Shown piece by piece: positions 35 to 17,010 of a stretch of 64,000 nt of DNA (the stretch's first letter is position 1; each line of letters begins with the position of its first letter). Position numbers and translations under genes: made by a program. The stretch is from Dehalococcoidia bacterium (GTDB lineage: Bacteria > Chloroflexota > Dehalococcoidia > SM23-28-2 > WHTN01): the NCBI GenBank assembly GCA_009377715.1, contig WHTN01000004.1:4753-68752 (forward strand), given 5' to 3'. The notes under the pieces are model-generated. The model did not search any database, was not told the origin of the DNA, and saw only the letters and a list, made by a program, of their open reading frames with translations.

Positions 35-1348
35 CTAGCCGATCTTCTCGGCGCCGCCCATATACGGACGCAGCGCTTCCGGCACGACGACAGAGCCATC
101 GCGCTGCTGGTAGTTCTCCAGCACGGCGATGACCGTGCGAGGCAGCGCTACACCTGAGCCGTTCAGCGTGTGGACGAACTCCGGCCGCGCGCCCTTCTCC
201 CGCCGAAAGCGCACATTCGCCCGCCGCGCCTGAAAGTCGGCGCAGTTGGAGATGCTGCTGACCTCCAACCACTCCTCGCAGCCGGCGGCCCACACCTCGA
301 GATCGTAGGTCATCGCCGCGGCGAAGCCGAGGTCGCCGGTGCAGAGCTGGACGACGCGGTACGGCAGGCCCAGCAGGCGCAGGACTTCCTCGGCGTCGGC
401 AAGCATAGTATCGAGTTCGGCGTCGGACTCCTCCGGCAGGCAGAACTTGTACATCTCCACCTTATCGAACTGATGTCCACGCTTGATGCCGCGCACGTCG
501 CGGCCGGCGCTCATCTTCTCGCGGCGGAAGCACGGCGTATAGGCAGCGTACCGTAGCGGCAACGCGTCGCCCTCGAGGATCTCGTCGCGATGGAGGTTAG
601 TGATCGGCACTTCGGCCGTCGGCACGAGCCAGATGTCGTCTTCGACGTCGTGATAGAGGTTATCGGCGAACTTCGGGAGCTGGCCGGAGCCCACCAGCGT
701 CTCTTCTTTCACGACGAACGGCGGATCGACCTCGGTGTAGCCGTGCTTGGTGACGTGCAGGTCCAGCATCCAGTTGATTAGCGCCCGCTCCAGCCGAGCG
801 CCTGCGCCCTTCAGCACGTAGAAGCGAGAGCCAGATAGTTTTACGCCGCGCTCAAAATCGATTATGTCAAGCGCTTCGCCGATCTCCCAGTGCGGCCGCG
901 GCGCGAAGTCGAAGGTCGGCCTTACGCCCTCGGTGCGGACGACGACGTTCTCCGTCTCGTCCCGCCCGATAGTGACGCGCTCGTTGGGGATATTCGGTAG
1001 CTGCATCGCCAGGCCTTGCAACTGGTCCTCGGTCTGTTTTACGTCCACCTCAAGCTCGTTGATGCGCTCGCTTACATCCCGCATACGCGCCATCAACTCG
1101 TCGCGCTTTGTCGTTGCGGCGGCGGCTTCGCCTTCGTCTTTCGCGCGCTGGACGGCCTGGTTCAGCCCGCCGATCTCTTTGCCGGCGACGTTGCGTTCGG
1201 CTCGCAGCGCCTCGTACTCCTGCAAGAGCGTGCGCCGTCTTCCATCGAGCGCGATGATGTCATCGACCGGCGCCGCGTCGGCCTGACGGTCATGCAACGC
1301 CTTGCGGACGGCGTCCGGGTTATCGCGCACGAACTGAATGCTCAGCAT
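35..1348 (-). CDS. serS: seryl-tRNA synthetase
   Basis: 437-aa ORF; N-terminal coiled-coil tRNA-binding arm plus class II aaRS catalytic core; full length. Confidence 0.95.
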   Translation of the reverse strand: MLSIQFVRDNPDAVRKALHDRQADAAPVDDIIALDGRRRTLLQEYEALRAERNVAGKEIGGLNQAVQRAKDEGEAAAATTKRDELMARMRDVSERINELEVDVKQTEDQLQGLAMQLPNIPNERVTIGRDETENVVVRTEGVRPTFDFAPRPHWEIGEALDIIDFERGVKLSGSRFYVLKGAGARLERALINWMLDLHVTKHGYTEVDPPFVVKEETLVGSGQLPKFADNLYHDVEDDIWLVPTAEVPITNLHRDEILEGDALPLRYAAYTPCFRREKMSAGRDVRGIKRGHQFDKVEMYKFCLPEESDAELDTMLADAEEVLRLLGLPYRVVQLCTGDLGFAAAMTYDLEVWAAGCEEWLEVSSISNCADFQARRANVRFRREKGARPEFVHTLNGSGVALPRTVIAVLENYQQRDGSVVVPEALRPYMGGAEKIG

Positions 1349-1364
1349 ATTGTTCCATTAACCT

Positions 1365-1425
1365 CGTAGCTGCAGACCTTTAGGTCTGCTAAAGCCTTTG
1401 CAGGTCTAAAGACCTGCAGCTACGT
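1365..1425. repeat. compound palindrome: two hairpins (GCAGACC-TTTA-GGTCTGC and GCAGGTC-TAAA-GACCTGC) nested inside an 11-bp outer stem CGTAGCTGCAG...CTGCAGCTACG
   Basis: read directly; lies between NUDIX 3' end and serS 5' end; 16-mer core CAGACCTTTAGGTCTG recurs at ~32438. Confidence 0.6.
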
Positions 1426-1447
1426 ATCATGGCTACGTTTGTTTTAA

Positions 1448-1491
1448 CCGCTCATGGTTCGACACGTTCACCATGAGCCTGTCGAAGGGCC
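1448..1491. repeat. REP-like palindromic repeat, family 1 (CCGCTCATGG...CCATGAGC hairpin followed by CTGTCGAAGGGCC)
   Basis: hairpin arms GCTCATGGT/ACCATGAGC read directly; related copies at ~33269, ~42492-42583, ~43944. Confidence 0.6.
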
Positions 1492-1995
1492 AACAACATT
1501 TTCTGTGTGGCTCGTCGATCTCGCCATTTCTATCGCCTTCAAGGCGAGCAGGCACACGTCCTCGGAAACTGGTACGGAGATGCCGCAGCCGGCCAGCTCA
1601 AGAGCGCAGTCGCCCCGCAAATCGGCTTCGTCGACCCATACGCTTATCGCATCGGCATCCGGCGACATGGCCGGGACACCATCGAGCGGGCGGCAGAAGA
1701 AGATGAAGTCGACGTGCTTGTGGGGCTCTCCGCGGTCGAAGCTGTTCTCCAGCAGTATGGCGACGGGCGTCGGAAGTTGCTCCGGATAGGCGAAAGCCAG
1801 GGGTTCCCGGCCAGGTAGCACTTCCACAGCCAGCCCGGTCTCCTCGAGCACCTCGCGCAGAAGCCCCGTAACCGGATCTTCGTCGGGCAGAAGATGGCCG
1901 CCGGGCGGCAGCCACATCTGCGCCTTGCGGTGCCACTGAAGCAGGACCTTGCCGTCGTTGACGACGAAGCCAGTAGCCGTGAAGTGCCTCTCCAT
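1468..1995 (-). CDS. NUDIX hydrolase
   Basis: Nudix box GGHLLPDEDPVTGLLREVLEETG in 175-aa ORF. Confidence 0.85.
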   Translation of the reverse strand: MERHFTATGFVVNDGKVLLQWHRKAQMWLPPGGHLLPDEDPVTGLLREVLEETGLAVEVLPGREPLAFAYPEQLPTPVAILLENSFDRGEPHKHVDFIFFCRPLDGVPAMSPDADAISVWVDEADLRGDCALELAGCGISVPVSEDVCLLALKAIEMARSTSHTENVVGPSTGSW

Positions 1996-2000
1996 GTGCC

Positions 2001-2648
2001 TTAGTCTAACAGCGAGAGGTCGAAATGGGCCAGATCGTCGAGTACTACGTCCGCGAGACTTAGGTCGAGTCCCGTCGTGCTGAGCGTTCGCACAGCTACG
2101 ACGAACATTTCGGCCGCGTTGGCCGACCGTATGCCGGACGGCGAGTCCTCGATCGCCAGGCAGCGCTTAGGCCCTACGCCGAGCCGTTCCGCTGCGAGAA
2201 GATAGCAGTCAGGCGCCGGCTTGTGGCGCTCGACCATCTCGCCGGAGACGATGATTTCGAACGCGTCGCCGAGGCCGATGCCTTCGAGCAGCGCATCAAC
2301 CCACGCGCCCAACGATGACGACGCCAGCCCCAGTCGAAGGCCGCGATCGTGCGCGGCCGATATCAGTTCGCGGACGCCGGTGTTGGGCTCGGCGGGCTTG
2401 CGCAGTTCGGCGAGGACGGCGGGGTCGTAGAGGCGCACATACTCGGCCAGCGGCCGCCTGAGGCCGTAGCGGCGGATGTACTCCTCCCAGGCCGCTTCGA
2501 CGCTGAGACCGATGATCTCGGCGTAGTCGCGTTCTGGGACGAGGACGCCCTCTTCGGCAAGGATCGTGTTGACGGCTGCGTAGTAGCGCGGCTCGCTGTC
2601 GGCGAGCACGCCGTCCATATCGAAGATAATGGCGTCGAAGCGCGGCAT
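2001..2648 (-). CDS. HAD-superfamily hydrolase (subfamily IA, beta-phosphoglucomutase-like)
   Basis: motifs FDMDGVL, HKPAPD, EDSPSGI. Confidence 0.85.
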   Translation of the reverse strand: MPRFDAIIFDMDGVLADSEPRYYAAVNTILAEEGVLVPERDYAEIIGLSVEAAWEEYIRRYGLRRPLAEYVRLYDPAVLAELRKPAEPNTGVRELISAAHDRGLRLGLASSSLGAWVDALLEGIGLGDAFEIIVSGEMVERHKPAPDCYLLAAERLGVGPKRCLAIEDSPSGIRSANAAEMFVVAVRTLSTTGLDLSLADVVLDDLAHFDLSLLD

Positions 2649-2651
2649 CGG

Positions 2652-3317
2652 CTACTGTTGCTCCCAGACGACGTTATCCGACGCGTGGACGATGAGAATA
2701 TCGCCGGAGCAGATTTCGCTTAGCGTATTTAGTTCTTGTGGGGCGCTAGGATCGTAGCTCCGCCAGCTTTGATCGCTTGCTTCATATTGCCACGCCACGT
2801 CTAGGACATCCAGGGTCGCGAACGCATCTTCGACCGGCTTACAGCCATCCGGGTGCCACTCGACGAAGTTCCACCCCTGCCAGAGGTCGACCGTATGCGT
2901 TTGCGGCGTCTCACAGGTCAGGTCCAGCCGGTGCTGCTTGGTGGGATCCCAAACTCCCGTCTGAGCGCAAGGGAGGAACACGGGTTCAGGGAACGGGTCT
3001 ACCCAATCGAAGGTAATCGTATCGCCGTAGCCAGCGCAGCCCCGCTCGACGGTAGTCGCCTTCACGTCTACGGTATAGCCAATGCCAAGCTCCTCGATGT
3101 CCTGGACTTCCGCCAGGCCGCAAATCTTATCGCGGATCTTCGCCCGCACCAGCGTTCCTACTTCAGGAGGCGCCCCTTCGACGGTGACGGTGCCATAGAA
3201 CGTGACGTAACTGAACGTAGGCTGAGCATCGACTTTAGAAGCGTCCGGAGAGACGGTTAGAACTACAAGAGCCACGATACCCGCAAGCGCCAGAATGAGA
3301 GCAACCGATTTCCTCAC
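2652..3317 (-). CDS. secreted/membrane-anchored hypothetical protein (domain A + domain B, paralogous to both ends of the upstream beta-helix protein)
   Basis: hydrophobic signal/anchor (VALILALAGIVALVVL); start moved to GTG ~3317 because the ORF-track start overlaps the upstream gene by ~210 nt; domain similarity seen by eye. Confidence 0.55.
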   Translation of the reverse strand: MRKSVALILALAGIVALVVLTVSPDASKVDAQPTFSYVTFYGTVTVEGAPPEVGTLVRAKIRDKICGLAEVQDIEELGIGYTVDVKATTVERGCAGYGDTITFDWVDPFPEPVFLPCAQTGVWDPTKQHRLDLTCETPQTHTVDLWQGWNFVEWHPDGCKPVEDAFATLDVLDVAWQYEASDQSWRSYDPSAPQELNTLSEICSGDILIVHASDNVVWEQQ

Positions 3318-3328
3318 GATGTTGACCT

Positions 3329-5232
3329 TTAGTCCTGGAGCCAAACGACGCCTTCCAACATATAGATGCTTAGGATGCCACAGACCTCTTGCAGCGTATT
3401 CACACTCGCGGGCGCGTTCGGATCGTAGCCAAGCCACGTTTGCGTCTCGCCGACGAACGCCCACGCAGTGCCCAGAATGCCCGCTTCTGTGAGTTGACGG
3501 AACGCCCAGTCCGCCGGACGGCAGCTTGAGGGCTGCCACTCAACTAAGTTCCAGTCGCCGAATAACGGCACCAGCGCAGCATCGCGCGCTCCAAATTCGT
3601 AAGCGCCGATATCGCAAATAACGCTGCCGCCGGTATTGTCATCGAAGGGTCTCGGGCGGCTGCGCTGATCTCTATCTGGGCATGCGCTGTTATCGCCAGC
3701 GTCTATGGCAGGGCTGCCGAACAGCAAGGCGTGCGTAAGCTTAGCACCACCGTCGTCGCCAAGCTCACTGAGCAAAGCATCATCCACAACGCGATCACCA
3801 CTGGCGTCAGCCAGACCGCAAGTGTCGTCGTCCGCGATACTGTGGTTGGTGGATATCGGCTCCGGGCCGCCGCAGTTGGTTTGAATGTTACGAGCGACGA
3901 TGGTGTTCGTCATCGTCGCGTCGCCGGAATTGTATATCCCGCCGCTACCGCCAGCCGCTAAGCTCGCATTGTCAGCAATCGTGACGTTAGTGAGGGTCAG
4001 CGTCCCGCTATTGCTTATGCCTGTGCCTTCGGTAGCCGACTGATTGCCGCTGATCGTGCTGTTCGTCAGGGTCGCGGTGCCCGTATTACTGAGGCCACCC
4101 CCTAAGTCTCCGTAGTTGTCGCTTATCGTACTCAGGGTGACGGTGAGTGCACCGTGGTTATCAATACCGCCTACGCCCAGATCGCTAATGTTTGTGCTTA
4201 TGGTACTTTCGGATATTTCGAGAGTGCCGGAGTTATGAATGCCTGCGGTACCGTCGACGCTGCTGTTTCCGCTTACGACACTCGTGTCAATAATAAGCGA
4301 GCCGTCATTGAGTATGCCGCTACCCTGAGCTGCAATATTTCGGCCGATCTCACTATCACGTACTAAGGCGGAGGCCCCGTTGTGCAAAGCGCCACCGGCG
4401 CTACTGCTATTTGCGTTGATAGTGATTCTTCTAACTGCAAGAGCACCTTCCAGATTATGAATGGCGCTACCAGCCTCGCTGTTGCCATTTCGGATAGTTA
4501 GATTCGCTGCGCTGAACTTGGTAGCGCCGACGACGTGGAACACCCTATCGAGGGCACCACCGTCTAGAGTACTTGTAGCCGTGCCGGATCCGACAATTGT
4601 AAGGTCGTCCGTGATATCTAAGTCACCCGTCTCGGCCTCATCTTCGGCTGCAGCGCCATTAGCGATGGTCAAAGAATAAGTGCCAGGCGGGACCGATATT
4701 GCGTCCAGGCCAGATACAAAGTTCGCTTCTTGGACGGCCGCCCGCAACGTGCATTCGCCCAGGAACGTTGCGCAGGCGTTATCACCTAACACCTCATCGC
4801 CAGCGTCGCGCTCGCTAGTGACGACAAACGTACGTAAGGCTTCGGAACAGACCAAGTCTAGTTCTTGAAAGCCCCCGTCCCAACTGCCGACGGTAGGCAG
4901 CCCAGAAACTCACCTTGAATGGTCTCCACCTCGAACAGGATTACCTTGCCCGTAGTGCCGCAATTTAACTCGTGACCTATCCAAAGTACATCTATGACAT
5001 ACCCTATGCCGATATCTTCAACCTCTCGAACGGTAGTCTGGCCACATAGATGGCCATCGATCCTGGCGCGGATTTCAGTGCCAATGGGAGGTATGGATCC
5101 ATCTACCAAAACCGTACCGGATATTCTGGTGGGTGGCCCTATTTGAGCTCGCGCGGAATCGTTGTCGGCGGAACTGACCGCTATCAAACTTGTGAGCAGA
5201 ACAGCCGCTGCTAAAAGTATTAGCTTTCTCAT
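3329..5232 (-). pseudogene. secreted CSLREA-type right-handed parallel beta-helix repeat protein, frame-disrupted (ORF-track pieces 4858..5232 and 3329..4855 are one gene)
   Basis: signal peptide MRKLILLAAAVLLTSLIAVSSA; domain A continues across the ORF boundary in the -1 frame (..WDGGFQELDLVC.. matches ..VWDPTKQHRLDLTC.. of the paralog); CTLRAAVQEAN (CSLREA-like) motif; many NxGxLTLTNSTISGN beta-helix repeats; shift around 4885-4900. Confidence 0.6.
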
Positions 5233-12254: not shown

Positions 12255-13200
12255 TCAATTTAAGAAGTTTATAGCTCTTTGAGCTAGACACCCCTCATCG
12301 CATCCACATGTCGAAGTTCTGCGTTGCTCTAAGCGACACTGGCCTAAAAACGGCGATAACTCTAGTACTTCTCCCAGAGACTTACGAAACACGTTATCGT
12401 AATCAGACTCAGAAGGCCTCGGCTCAACGTTGTGACAAGGACTAATCCAACCGTCCCATCGCACCACAAGCTCTTTAGCGATCGCCACGCATTTGTTCGG
12501 CTCACGATAGCGAGCAAGTGTCGCCTCTCCAAGTCGAACGCGAACATGAGCTTTATCACCGATCATATCGATATGCTCTCTGAGTAGCTCGAAAGGCACA
12601 AAAAAGGCTGTCTCCCTTGGTAGCTGCTCTGCCTTGCGGCACACTCGTCAATATGCGTAGTTCATGAATTCCCAATTCATCGCAAAGAGTTGCTGCTTGG
12701 AGTAGATCAGTCAAGTTGCCGGGGTATGCGAAGAAGGTACACGTAACATTGATTCCAGCCTTGACCATATTTTTAACTGCGAGACATGTCGCTTCAAAAC
12801 TCCCTTGTATCCGAGTTAATGCATCGTGACGAGCAGCCAGCCCAGAATGAAGAGATACACGGCACAGATCGACCCAATTCTTCATCTCAAGCGCTCTTGA
12901 GGAGTCAATCGGAACCAGCCGATATGACGAGTCGAAAAGGACACCCATTGAGAACAATATGGTATTTAACCCGCAGACCTTTGAGCACTCTAGAATTGAG
13001 TGTAGTGATTCATGAAGCAACGGTTCGCCACCTGTAACGATTAGGCTTTGCCCACCTTGGTCTTTAAATTCCTTAATGAGTTTGCAGGCAACGGTATGAT
13101 CCATTTTCTGAGTTCTGCGTAACCCGGCTGATACAGAGCAGTGCCCGCACGCTAATGGACACTGCTGCGTAATCTCCAACCGTAAAGTATCAATTGTGTA
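12255..13200 (-). pseudogene. radical SAM / SPASM-domain enzyme, frame-disrupted (ORF-track pieces 12556..13257 and 12255..12644)
   Basis: CPLACGHC (CxxxCxxC) and TGGEPLL in N-terminal piece; Cys-rich twitch/SPASM-like C-terminus (WDGWISPCHNVEP...CGCDEGC) in another frame; shift within ~12600-12645 next to an A6 run at ~12600-12605; start trimmed to the internal Met. Confidence 0.7.
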
Positions 13201-13777
13201 CATCTGCGGTACTCGATAATAATTGGCGTATGGCAGTGATTGCTTCAAGCCTTGCATCTGTCGAAACTACGACCAATTCGCCAACTTGAAGATCGCACTC
13301 GCGTGCTACCAACCGCTGCAGTCTTGCGAGTCCCACGAAATTGCTATATGCCTTACTGTGGTAATGTTGACTGCGGTACGTTGCTGTCATTATGAGTTCA
13401 CCATCGCGCTGGTGAAATTGAATCGATGAGAGACATGGAAACCCTCTGTTCGCCGCAGCTGAAGTTGATGGCCTACCGAAAAGAATTGGCCGTGGATCGA
13501 CTCCACTTCGGCGCAACGAACGAATGATTCTTACAATTTGATTGACCTTGCCACTCCCGTCATAGTCAACCATTCGCACAAAATAATTGCGGCTATCCAT
13601 TTTCCTTATAAGGCGCTGCGCAGCCTTTTCCCAATTGCTTGCCTCGATCACGGAAATCGGCATTATAGTACGGGCTACGGCACGCATACTGTGTGAGGCG
13701 TCTAGCGATAAAGCCCGATCTATAAGGACACCGCGCTCATCCTCAAAAGACGAAGGTCTTTCTATGCTTACTACCAA
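13190..13777 (-). CDS. thymidylate-synthase-fold protein, 3' portion of a gene interrupted by the IS1595-family insertion
   Basis: alignable by eye to ThyA core: ..GFPCLSSIQFHQRDGELIMTATYRSQHY..SNF..ARECDLQVGELVVVSTD.. vs E. coli ..[46 protein letters not shown]..; begins at TTG 4 nt from the IS left end. Confidence 0.6.
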   Translation of the reverse strand: MVVSIERPSSFEDERGVLIDRALSLDASHSMRAVARTIMPISVIEASNWEKAAQRLIRKMDSRNYFVRMVDYDGSGKVNQIVRIIRSLRRSGVDPRPILFGRPSTSAAANRGFPCLSSIQFHQRDGELIMTATYRSQHYHSKAYSNFVGLARLQRLVARECDLQVGELVVVSTDARLEAITAIRQLLSSTADVHN

Positions 13778-13854
13778 ATTAGGGTAATAATCTAGTTGAC
13801 TCAGTAGAAAAGTCGCTCTATGATTGCTTTAATCTTATTAGCCTGTGGGAGATT

Positions 13855-14610
13855 ATGCAGTCATTTAGCGGTTTTGATTTGTTCGGTTTGGGGCAATTCA
13901 TCACCGCGCTAACGGAAGGGGAAGGGCAGCGCATAATCCCAGAAGACACGCGCCATCAGATGGAGCAGGCTGCGCGGCAGGCCCGGCGGACATGCATTCT
14001 TTGTGGTTTTCCCGCAACGGCTGCTGGACTCGCAAGACTAATTGCCGACCTGCAAGCTCCAATAACTGAGGAGCAGGTCACGATAGGAGGGAGGTATTGC
14101 TTCCAGGCTCTAACGGATGAAGCAGGCGCTAGATTATTTCTTTACATGGGCGAGAGTCGTAGGTATTACTATGAGTCCCCATCAGAAGGATGGAACGATG
14201 TGTTAGAGAAGTTTCCGTCAGCGCGGCTCGACATAGAGGAAGCCAGCAAATGTTACGCATTAGCCCGGTATACAGCTTCTGTGTTCCATTCGATGCGGAT
14301 ACTAGAGCCAGCGTTGAATGCGCTTGCTGGCGAGTTTGCTGTGTCTACGGATAGGGCAAACTGGCATAACATCCTAGATCAGGTCGTTGCCGCTATTGAA
14401 CAAAAGAGTAAGGCGCAAGGGGCTGGGTGGACAGACCAACAGTTCTATTCGGAGGCGGCTGTAGACCTACGTTTCTTCAAGGACGCGTGGCGCAATCACG
14501 TAATGCACGTACGAAAGACCTTTGATGAAGAAAGAGCGTTAGGTATTTACCAGCGGGTCCGCGACTTAATGAGGCACTTATCTACCAAACTAAGCGAGCC
14601 ACCCCTATGA
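13855..14610 (+). CDS. passenger gene of the IS: hypothetical protein with a possible HEPN-like R-x4-H motif (WRNHVMH)
   Basis: 251-aa ORF between IR-L and transposase; the single R-N-x3-H motif near the C-terminus is the only HEPN evidence. Confidence 0.5.
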   Translation: MQSFSGFDLFGLGQFITALTEGEGQRIIPEDTRHQMEQAARQARRTCILCGFPATAAGLARLIADLQAPITEEQVTIGGRYCFQALTDEAGARLFLYMGESRRYYYESPSEGWNDVLEKFPSARLDIEEASKCYALARYTASVFHSMRILEPALNALAGEFAVSTDRANWHNILDQVVAAIEQKSKAQGAGWTDQQFYSEAAVDLRFFKDAWRNHVMHVRKTFDEERALGIYQRVRDLMRHLSTKLSEPPL

Positions 14611-14759
14611 CTTGTCCCGCACCTCATCCTTCGGCTCTCGTATTGCTTCCTTCGGCACGCGGACTATCTTGCGCGTCAACCGCTCAAATCGTTCCCATGC
14701 CGTCTCCGGCGTGCCCTTCGGTTTCTTGGGGTCATTTGCCATGTTTCCCCCTTCCCTGT

Positions 14760-15719
14760 CTACGTTGGCGTCGTAGCGTCTCCTATAAGCTCTGCGTAGG
14801 TCAATCGCTTGCCTGTAATCCTCTTAGCGAGCCGCAGGAAGCGCTCGCCGTCGGTTGCCCTTCGACTGTTGAATCGAAAGGCTTCTTCATCAAGATAACG
14901 GAAAAGGTGGAACGGCTCTACGCTTACATAGGTGCCTTTGATAGCACGTTTCAAGAGGCTCCAGAAATTCTCAATGCCGTTGACGTGAATCCTGCCTTCG
15001 ACGTACTTCTCCGCGTGGTCAATAACACCATGAATATAATCCATCTTCAAGTCATCATAAGAGCGAAACGCGTCTGTAAAGACCTCAGCGCCTTCCTTAG
15101 CCTGACTGCGGACTTGCCCGCTCAGGGCATGGCGGCGACGATTCGCTACGATGGTAGTCCTGACGGTGCTGTGTCCGTCTGGCCCGTGACGCTCCAAAAG
15201 GCCCATGACTGCAACTTTGCCAGTGGCCCAGGTACCAGTAATCTTCTCCGCTCGCTTGTCCTTGTGCATGAAGCGGGCCTTGCCACCGATAAAGGTTTCA
15301 TCGACTTCGATGATGCCGTCCATCTTAGTGTAGTCATCGGACTGCATAGCGAGCCGTATGCGATGGAGCATAAACCAAGCGGTTGTTTGAGTCACGCCGA
15401 GAGCACGGGCCAATTCATAGGAGCTAATACCGTTCTTGTCGTTGGCAATAAGCCACAAGGAAGGAAGCCACCTGTCCAGACCGATAGGGCTGTCCTCAAA
15501 GATAGTCCCTACCTTGACCGAGAACTGCCGTTTGGCGTGCTTGTCCTTGCACTCCCACAGTTGGCGAGTAGAGATGTAACGCGCATCGGTTCGGCCACAA
15601 TTAGGGCACGCGATAACGCCATCGGGCCATCGCATCGCGAGCATAAACTTTTGACAAGTCTCAGGGTCAGAAAAGAACTTAATCGCTTCGAGAAGGGTTG
15701 CGGGCTGGCTGTTATTCAT
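14760..15719 (-). CDS. IS1595-family transposase (ISXO2-like, N-terminal zinc ribbon + DDE domain)
   Basis: 319-aa ORF; ..MRWPDGVIACPNCG.. zinc-ribbon and ISXO2-like DDE region. Confidence 0.9.
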   Translation of the reverse strand: MNNSQPATLLEAIKFFSDPETCQKFMLAMRWPDGVIACPNCGRTDARYISTRQLWECKDKHAKRQFSVKVGTIFEDSPIGLDRWLPSLWLIANDKNGISSYELARALGVTQTTAWFMLHRIRLAMQSDDYTKMDGIIEVDETFIGGKARFMHKDKRAEKITGTWATGKVAVMGLLERHGPDGHSTVRTTIVANRRRHALSGQVRSQAKEGAEVFTDAFRSYDDLKMDYIHGVIDHAEKYVEGRIHVNGIENFWSLLKRAIKGTYVSVEPFHLFRYLDEEAFRFNSRRATDGERFLRLAKRITGKRLTYAELIGDATTPT

Positions 15720-15784
15720 GGCTTTTACTCCTTACAGCCACATTATAACCCAGATAGCTTACTGAGTCAACTAGGTTATTACCC

Positions 15785-15945
15785 AAATTAGATACTCGAT
15801 GATCCTTGGTTTCGAGAAGACAGCTTATAGCTGTTTGCCACGCAGGCCATATATCTGTTTCCGGAATATACAAAGACTGTTCATGGTACAACCTCTTTAT
15901 CTGGTATAGCTTTGAAGGCGAGGCTATCTTGAAGGGCTGATTCAT
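15785..15945 (-). other. displaced 5' fragment of the ThyA-fold gene (in frame with 13777 once the IS and one AAATTA copy are removed)
   Basis: ORF 15712..15945 runs from ATG into IR-R; its frame is continuous with the TTG at 13777 across the insertion point; reconstructed product ~248 aa (ThyA is 264 aa). Confidence 0.45.
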
Positions 15946-16933
15946 CCATTCTTAGTCGTTTGGCCATCGACTGTGAAAGCACTCTGTAATAATTCAGTGG
16001 TGTCGTCTCCCCTTTGGGTGGCGTCATTTTTTTTAGGACTCTAACTGTTGAGTCATTAACTATACCCAGAGCACGCAGCCGGGCGAGTGCTGCTGCGTGG
16101 CTAATTCCATAAGAAGTTTCCATTTCAGCCAGGCTATCCAATATGAAACCTGATGCTAGATATGCTTGAATAGTTTGTCGGGGCAATAGAAGGGCTGAAG
16201 CGAAGACATCTGCTCGATATTCCATGTGCGAACGTGGGCCAGGGCGTTCCCAGCCCGCATCACAAACCGTTGTCCGTAATTCACGATCCATCAGGTAATG
16301 AGCTAATTCATGGGCAAGTGTAAAGCGCTGACGGGAACGCGGCTGGTTATAGTTGACGATTATTGAGGCAAACCTCTTCTCGTCTACGACCATACACCCT
16401 GCAACCCTGGACTTACTCGGAAAACGGGCCCCGAAGACGGCTAGGCCTAGGCGGGTTAAAAGGCCTGAAAAACCGCTTATTGGTTCATTTGGTGGGATAC
16501 CCAAATGTTTACGAATCCTGCGCGCTAGCAACTCACCGGCTTCTGTATCTGCACGAAGTGCTAAATTACGGGTTACATTCGGCGTCTCGCAGGAATCGGA
16601 GACTTGCGAAAGAGAATCATGCAAGGTAAGAAACCAAGATAAGACAGCTTGATCCTCGGGGCTAACAGGTCCAGACCGAAACCGGAAAAGATTGCTACGA
16701 CTGGCCTTTACCGATACAGTTGGTCGGGGCTTAAGTAACTCTACGACAGGACAATTTAATAGTTTGGAAATTACTGAAAGCTCGGAGGCAGTAACGCTAC
16801 GCGATCCTTGCTCAATTCGACTTATCGCAGATCTATCGACACCAAGCAACTCGGCGAGTTGTGCCTGGCTCAGGCTTTGACGATAGCGTGCTTCTTGGAT
16901 ATTGTATCCAATATCCTTATCCGAAACTCTCAT
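15881..16933 (-). CDS. fused XRE-family HTH + ImmA/IrrE-family zinc metallopeptidase (COG2856-like) regulator
   Basis: HTH ..LSQAQLAELLGVDRSAISRIEQG..; HEXXH as FTLAHELAHYLMD; start placed at internal Met (MRVSDKD) because upstream is AT-rich promoter-like DNA abutting the leuS stop. Confidence 0.8.
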   Translation of the reverse strand: MRVSDKDIGYNIQEARYRQSLSQAQLAELLGVDRSAISRIEQGSRSVTASELSVISKLLNCPVVELLKPRPTVSVKASRSNLFRFRSGPVSPEDQAVLSWFLTLHDSLSQVSDSCETPNVTRNLALRADTEAGELLARRIRKHLGIPPNEPISGFSGLLTRLGLAVFGARFPSKSRVAGCMVVDEKRFASIIVNYNQPRSRQRFTLAHELAHYLMDRELRTTVCDAGWERPGPRSHMEYRADVFASALLLPRQTIQAYLASGFILDSLAEMETSYGISHAAALARLRALGIVNDSTVRVLKKMTPPKGETTPLNYYRVLSQSMAKRLRMDESALQDSLAFKAIPDKEVVP

Positions 16934-16940
16934 TTCGGAT

Positions 16941-16970
16941 ATTATAGGCCGGTTATGATCATGGATGCAA
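16941..16970 (-). promoter_or_regulatory. candidate sigma70-type promoter for the XRE-ImmA gene (leaderless transcript)
   Basis: minus strand TTGCAT (16970-16965), 18-nt spacer, TATAAT (16946-16941), ATG 7 nt downstream. Confidence 0.35.
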
Positions 16971-17010
16971 TATTTATTTAAGAGTTTATGTGCGCATTCC
17001 ACACAGGAAA

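Follow-up and report, generated by a model that had tools for sequence, protein, structure and literature searches.

What entered a thymidylate-synthase-like gene of a Dehalococcoidia bacterium, and did the gene lying next to the transposase travel with it? The question arises near the middle of the first half of a 64,000-nucleotide stretch of contig WHTN01000004.1 (the window), where a preliminary description, made from the sequence alone, had recognised an IS1595-family element with 23-bp inverted repeats, a 6-bp target duplication and a 251-residue passenger. Our analysis makes it very probable that a 2001-bp transporter insertion sequence (IS) of the IS1595 family moved as one unit into this gene, generating an 8-bp duplication and carrying a HEPN-like cargo gene. 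Transporter IS are a kind of element already known; the wider interest is in the cargo slot of the clade, the HEPN-like protein family, a conserved small open reading frame (ORF) and a target palindrome that mimics the termini.

The inverted repeats as first drawn, at 13782-13804 and 15762-15784, are identical at 22 of 23 positions. A repeat search allowing up to three mismatches revealed these two sites only in the window and none in 100 dinucleotide-preserving shuffles, which bears out the repeats of the preliminary description, and the element is present as a single copy within the window. Redrawn as explained below, the repeats are 24 nucleotides long with GG...CC ends and differ at one position. 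For comparison, a transposase scan of species-representative genomes gave 66 loci, whereas a repeat scan of metagenomes gave only six, among them the complete element L022. The comparison set consists of 49 elements with inverted repeats anchored at both ends, including the window element and L022, and its repeats share the consensus GGyAAyAAyaTACTTGACTCAG. In the closest relative, the repeat GGCAATAACCTACTTGACTCAG lies at the same distance from the transposase start as in the window element. Three ORFs, of 319, 251 and 45 residues, are found between the repeats (Table 1), in addition to a 394-residue plus-strand ORF (14607-15791), which is antisense to the transposase and was treated as spurious. 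At 52.0%, the G+C content of the element is below that of the window (55.8%) and of the 5-kb flanks (about 55%), a small difference that is consistent with horizontal acquisition.

Excision in silico provides a test of the boundaries that is independent of the repeats themselves. Removal of the element together with one copy of the duplication (2009 bp) fuses 15945..15792 to 13782..13190 and yields a 248-residue thymidylate-synthase-like ORF; the frame is broken if both copies of the duplication are kept, or if both are removed. The restored protein aligns without a gap across the junction with eight intact homologues (P0241-P0248, 226-239 residues). At the junction, HRVSNL is joined to VVSIERP where the homologues have HRISNLVVRINEP, and the conserved H-R-x-x-N-L-V-V motif spans the joint exactly. 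The flanking repeat is therefore a genuine target duplication, as had been claimed. Judging from the reading frames, the host gene is inactivated by insertion at about codon 52, and the locus gains a base-exact mobile-element annotation together with a demonstrated gene knockout. The same excision bears on a different history, in which a transposase-only IS came to lie by chance beside a pre-existing cassette of solo repeat plus cargo, so that the outer repeats never moved together. Transposase-free modules of solo repeat plus cargo do occur (L013, L015/L016, L099 and L020), yet such a juxtaposition is highly improbable here: the 8-bp duplication is identical at the outer ends, removal of 2001 bp and one copy restores the host gene, no third, internal repeat was found inside the element, and 35 full cargo-bearing elements have the duplication at their outer ends.

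The length of the duplication was settled by the related elements. The preliminary description placed the element at 13782-15784 (2003 bp), with GGG...CCC ends and a hexamer AAATTA immediately outside (13776-13781 and 15785-15790), which would be unusual for IS1595. The hexamers are indeed there. The octamer CAAATTAG, however, also repeats at both sides and overlaps the outermost G and C of the 23-nucleotide repeats; an 8-bp model is possible because the C and G of the target coincide with the bases at the extreme ends of the presumed termini. On the window sequence alone, the 6-bp and 8-bp models are equally consistent. Among the 49 elements, 35 have a hexameric direct repeat outside GGG...CCC termini, at most three fit when the register is shifted by one base, and none fits larger shifts. 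The same 35 elements have an exact 8-bp duplication outside GG...CC ends. An 8-bp repeat drawn outside GGG...CCC fits 0/49, and a 10-bp duplication was rejected, as it fits only 10/49, the number expected from the CC...GG target preference alone.

The two models part only where a base other than G or C is outermost. Eleven elements offer 17 positions of this kind, and all 17 copy the base beside the hexamer on the opposite flank, for which the chance is about 0.25^17. Because only the 8-bp model predicts these copies, the comparison argues for a duplication of 8 bp. Moreover, L090, L091 and L093, one insertion site in separate assemblies, show an exact 8-bp repeat GCATCATT beside GG...CC; the L090 element, which is independent of the window element, has no G/C ambiguity, and the 6-bp model with GGG ends cannot fit it. 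In the literature, too, duplications of IS1595 elements are usually 8 bp long (PMC8101967, citing Siguier et al. 2009). We thus give the 6-bp geometry very little credence, although 35 relatives fit it as well. By these alignments the element duplicates 8 bp of target and ends in GG...CC, so that each boundary lies one base inside the one first drawn; the longer duplication for which the preliminary description proposed a check was found through the 49 related elements. The two further findings on which that description had staked its reading, terminal repeats in other copies and duplications flanking other insertions, were both obtained.

The target octamers of the 35 elements begin with C in 27 and end with G in 26, with W at the inner edges in 31 and 28, respectively, and C and G are further enriched just outside the octamer. 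This profile suggests a preference for the palindrome C-W-N4-W-G. As a target preference for C...G mimics GG...CC termini, boundaries drawn from a single copy may be one base off, which is a warning for annotation.

Two sets of relatives have unusual flanks. L035 and L036 are identical 2287-bp copies in opposite orientation, about 160 kb apart on contig CBDFIA010000002.1 of a Tepidiformaceae metagenome-assembled genome (MAG). Neither has a duplication of its own; one copy has on its right the flank that the other has on its left (TTCCCAAT), and the remaining two flanks do not match each other, a pattern that suggests inversion by recombination between the copies. In addition, L032, L037 and L038, from different MAGs, and the solo repeat with cargo L015/L016 all lie within a palindromic CCCCCTTTCGTAAAGGGGG, where the duplication is ambiguous at 7-9 bp. 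This palindrome could be a repeated host sequence that serves as a hotspot.

Table 1. Coordinates of the element, its parts and the interrupted gene (positions in the window)
Feature	Position	Strand	Description
Element proper	13783-15783 (2001 bp)	- (strand of the transposase)	IS1595-family transporter IS, bounded by inverted repeats and duplication
Left target-site duplication copy	13775-13782	.	CAAATTAG, identical to right copy
Right target-site duplication copy	15784-15791	.	CAAATTAG
Cargo-side terminal inverted repeat	13783-13806	+	GGTAATAATCTAGTTGACTCAGTA, 23/24 identity with the other end
Transposase-side terminal inverted repeat	15760-15783	-	reverse complement GGTAATAACCTAGTTGACTCAGTA
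IS1595-family transposase	14760-15719 (319 residues)	-	apparently intact; Pfam PF12762, PF12760, NCBIfam NF033547
Small ORF	14605-14742 (45 residues)	-	directly after the transposase; motif ETAWERFERLTRKIVRVPKEAI
Passenger gene	13855-14610 (251 residues)	+	all-helical, HEPN-like C-terminal half (R213-x4-H218)
Predicted transposase promoter	15742-15770	-	TTGACT (in repeat), 17 nt, TATAAT; 11/12 consensus
Predicted passenger promoter	13796-13824	+	TTGACT (in repeat), 17 nt, TATGAT; 10/12 consensus
Host gene, C-terminal part	13190-13782	-	thymidylate-synthase-like; Pfam PF00303, 5e-8
Host gene, N-terminal part	15792-15945	-	joins in frame to 13190-13782 after element removal

The transposase consists of a zinc ribbon, a helix-turn-helix and a DDE domain. 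Profile searches revealed matches to DDE_Tnp_IS1595 (1e-34, profile positions 2-153 of 153), to Zn_ribbon_IS1595 at the N-terminus (1.8e-11) and to the NCBIfam model transpos_IS1595 (179 bits against a cutoff of 75), and the earlier assignment to the IS1595 family stands. A zinc ribbon is found in all IS1595 subgroups except IS1016 (PMC8101967). In an alignment of 120 sequences, the window transposase and 119 homologues, residues C38, C41, C57, D140, D216, E250 and K257 are all present in the window protein, and each is at least 97% conserved. D140, D216, E250 and K257 are the presumed catalytic residues of the family. The closest transposase on record, from a Dehalococcoidia MAG, is 81% identical; identity falls to about 37% for the nearest transposases on plasmids from cultured bacteria, which carry no annotation beyond “IS1595 family transposase”. 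Every feature of the family that was checked is present, and by its sequence the element is a member of IS1595. Within the family, the ISNwi1/ISNwi1+ subgroup is a candidate home: the GG..AT.AT ends fit it, and the D, D, E and K residues together with E278-x3-R282 fit the “DDEK+ER4” signature of ISNwi1. By ISfinder practice, the element would count as a new IS.

The relatives share an architecture in which the cargo occupies a single place. Their hosts, across the 66 loci, are mostly Chloroflexota/Dehalococcoidia MAGs, in addition to MAGs of Rokubacteria, Methylomirabilota, Acidobacteriota, Planctomycetota, Verrucomicrobiota and deltaproteobacteria. The 49 elements are 1.5-4.8 kb in size, and each has at least 0.5 kb extra between the transposase 3' end and the far repeat. 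This slot holds a DUF3800 gene in 12 elements; DUF3800 is a component of the type VII retron in DefenseFinder (bioRxiv 10.1101/2025.01.07.631744). Five elements have a stand-alone RelA/SpoT gene, matching the PADLOC candidate PDC-S33 at 1e-108. Further cargoes are PDC-S42 and GmrSD_N+HNH (one element each), RhuM and SocA/Panacea antitoxin-domain genes (two each), and AIPR, NYN and DUF4760 (one each), and two of the largest elements contain nested IS256-type transposases. Altogether, about 34 of the 49 elements have a toxin- or defence-type cargo, which leaves the impression of an enrichment of defence cargo in the clade. A clade of IS1595 elements in uncultured bacteria thus nearly always carries one small cargo module. 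The orphan cargo proteins of L031 and L043, of similar size, were considered as distant relatives of the passenger and rejected (hhalign probability <1%). In L003-L012, which have the 81%-identical transposase, the 251-residue gene is replaced by a 66-residue ORF (L003, ~4614-4814) with an IS3-family element inserted just past it, and the far repeat was not found.

The passenger was identified correctly in the preliminary description as the 251-residue ORF: it lies inside the repeats and moved with the unit, and nine other complete elements have homologues of it (31-44% identity) in the same slot and orientation. It has no match in Pfam, NCBIfam or PADLOC, and neither a sequence-profile search of the PDB nor Foldseek against the PDB gave anything significant. 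A word-indexed search found 162 homologues, the best of them 50% identical, and a profile search of 1.84 billion cluster representatives found 8,655 at E <= 1e-3 and 4,999 at E <= 1e-30; by these searches the family is large and unannotated. Residues F120, H145, W170, K209, W212, R213 and H218 do not vary among the 74 aligned members. Two of them frame an Rx4H motif, R213-N-H-V-M-H218 within FKDAWRNHVMH, which conforms to the Rx4-6H motif of HEPN domains. Pfam HEPN (PF05168) is the only recurrent family among the matches of the 74 members, reached by 11 of them and weakly (best E 2.3e-4), with single matches to three other HEPN-type models; the passenger itself does not match it. In the fold comparison, generic helical bundles score equally well. 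Altogether, the C-terminal half of the passenger is probably a HEPN domain, and the protein is a candidate RNase.

The association was also tested in reverse, with passenger homologues picked regardless of their context. Two of them, P0044 and P0020, are convergent to IS1595 transposases, and P0008, P0002 and P0014 have no transposase and a solo IS1595-type repeat upstream, for which the chance rate is about 0.2 per 100 kb. Seven of the 17 passenger relatives on viral contigs adjoin IS1595 transposase remnants or repeats, and L018 and L021 retain a C-terminal stub of the transposase. From these remnants, it seems common for the transposase to be lost while repeat plus cargo persist.

Several individual members illustrate such remnants or their annotation. 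The gene calls of P0004, P0116 and P0273 are over-extended upstream through the inverted repeat, which is translated in frame as GNNILDSV or GNNLLDSV; a census by the in-frame peptide GNNILDSV detected 3/237 members only and is too insensitive. In the marine sediment contig L013 (genes 46-4039), a passenger homologue follows a solo IS1595-type repeat, with a RuvC gene on one side and the genes for both terminase subunits, small and large, on the other, and because of these flanking genes the cargo is assigned to a phage or prophage genome. Between thiamine-biosynthesis genes, L099/L100 (2671-4385) has a solo IS1595 repeat with a DUF3800 gene after it, then a second, degenerate repeat and a HEPN-like homologue of the passenger, but no transposase; by its layout, this appears to be two decayed cargo modules in tandem.

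The 251-residue protein might instead assist transposition, for example as a regulator or as a helper that binds DNA or RNA, rather than being a toxin or defence cargo. We regard this as quite unlikely, since the same slot elsewhere holds unrelated DUF3800, RelA/SpoT (PDC-S33), PDC-S42, GmrSD+HNH, AIPR, Panacea and NYN genes, as well as two further cargo proteins without profile similarity to the passenger, and members of the passenger family also occur without any transposase. Moreover, the conserved component other than the transposase is not the passenger but the 45-residue ORF. A hidden Markov model of this small ORF is positive in 36 of the 49 elements, with the clade motif TPFERFxxLAkkIvxVPK. 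In the clade these ORFs encode 40-60 residues, are basic and mostly lie in the same +2 frame relative to the transposase. The window copy is 73-75% identical to its counterpart in the relative with the 81%-identical transposase, and its ATG is preceded by a purine-rich, Shine-Dalgarno-like AGGGGG. It has no Pfam or NCBIfam match. As the IS1595 family is described with a single transposase gene (PMC8101967), a second conserved ORF is a feature of this clade.

The terminal repeats may also contribute to expression. Both predicted promoters take their -35 box from a repeat (Table 1), and on the transposase side a -10-like hexamer at 16-18 nucleotides recurs in 38/49 relatives. The passenger and the small ORF are convergent and overlap by 6 bp, and no terminator-like site was found between them. 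Because convergent genes are not separated by a terminator, antisense read-through into the transposase is plausible.

Taken together, the cargo-bearing unit might work as follows. The transposase would cut its target with an 8-bp stagger, preferring C-W-N4-W-G, and would be driven by the near-consensus promoter whose -35 box lies inside the repeat. The slot between the small ORF and the far repeat holds one gene reading inward, convergent with the transposase, and the -35 box of this cargo would likewise be supplied by the repeat. The passenger may act as a toxin of the RNase type or as an effector of abortive infection, to the benefit of the element or its host, and convergent transcription without a terminator may lower transposase expression.

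Several observations weigh against an active unit with a toxin cargo. Searches with the exact sequences of transposase and passenger returned this locus alone (Logan assembly), with no second copy and no empty site. An exact duplication is absent in 14 of the 49 elements, such as L022, whose transposase is frameshifted, and the apparently rearranged L035/L036. On the cargo side, a -10-like hexamer at the right spacing occurs in only 10/49 relatives. No MNT or other antitoxin-like partner was found within the element, an unusual situation for a HEPN toxin; the 45-residue ORF was considered as the antitoxin and rejected, as it accompanies the transposase whatever the cargo. The single copy, together with the frequent decay of relatives to solo repeats with cargo, transposase stubs or frameshifted genes, would also suit a dead relic whose passenger is a neutral hitchhiker or a decaying gene. 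Such a relic is nevertheless unlikely, because both ORFs are full length with the family-invariant residues intact, the repeats agree at 23 of 24 positions, the duplication is perfect and both predicted promoters are near consensus. These same features of the sequence point to a recent insertion.

The element resembles the transporter IS, that is, IS with passenger genes, which were first defined for the IS1595 family (PMC3129680 and PMC8101967, citing Siguier, Gagnevin and Chandler 2009). It shares with them the zinc ribbon, the DDE_Tnp_IS1595 domain, repeats starting with GG, an 8-bp duplication, a passenger inside the repeats and, across the clade, the size range. As in a transporter IS, the duplication lies at the outer ends, excision restores the host gene, and the slot holds unrelated genes across relatives. 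Unlike the transporter IS as described, the clade has a conserved second small ORF, and the transposase is at most 81% identical to any on record. The concept of mobile insertion cassettes and solo repeats derived from IS is cited in PMC3129680. Some passenger relatives are similar to these cassettes in that repeat plus cargo remain and the transposase is lost (L013, L015/L016, L099 and L018), whereas the window element is autonomous, with an intact transposase.

By analogy, the nearest functional counterpart is the toxin-antitoxin modules embedded in Tn3-family transposons, one of which is a HEPN-MNT pair; these modules have been proposed to stabilise the transposon (Lima-Mendez et al. 2020, PMC7157771). 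In both cases a toxin-type gene, HEPN included, occupies a fixed position near the transposition module, and there is evidence for repeated independent acquisition. However, Tn3 differs in family, size and mechanism (resolvase), and its cargoes are two-gene toxin-antitoxin pairs, compared to the single HEPN-like gene without a partner here, whose promoter is partly built from the terminal repeat. No sequence-level match was found to the HEPN RNase toxins RnlA and LsoA, which are anti-phage proteins of E. coli, or to the stand-alone HEPN proteins AF0298, TT1696 and ST0689. Compared to RnlA/LsoA, the passenger has a different N-terminal domain and lacks a cognate RnlB/LsoB-like antitoxin gene. 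In the literature covered, which is incomplete, we found no IS1595 element described as carrying HEPN or defence genes, a weak indication of novelty.

A broader proposal can be put forward tentatively. The clade, found mainly in uncultured Chloroflexota and in other soil and sediment phyla, might specialise in the carriage of small immune or toxin modules, with one exchangeable slot (HEPN-like, DUF3800, RelA/SpoT PDC-S33, PDC-S42, GmrSD, AIPR, RhuM and Panacea) and a cargo -35 box supplied by the repeat. The 251-residue protein would then be a new stand-alone HEPN effector of defence or addiction, and the 45-residue protein an unrecognised accessory of the transposition core. Should these cargoes function, immune genes could spread by simple insertion sequences as well as by large islands, prophages and plasmids, and a large unannotated protein family would gain a testable function.

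The interrupted gene belongs to an apparent operon on the minus strand (12255-17002), which begins with a regulator of HTH_XRE and M78-peptidase domains, continues with the thymidylate-synthase-like gene and ends with a radical SAM gene. The regulator (15881-17002) matches PADLOC RmrA at 4e-29 and capP at 4e-25, and the radical SAM gene (12556-13257) has weak PADLOC matches to pVip (6.6e-10). On the unrelated contig L118 (2947-5598), the same pair of regulator and ThyA-like genes is followed by a MazG_C gene. From its gene content, the operon knocked out by the IS is a candidate nucleotide-modifying or defence-like operon. Its radical SAM and SPASM domains lie in overlapping minus-strand ORFs in different frames (12556-13257 and 12255-12644), which represent either a frameshift, in a pseudogene or by assembly error, or two genes; the Logan assembly likewise calls two.

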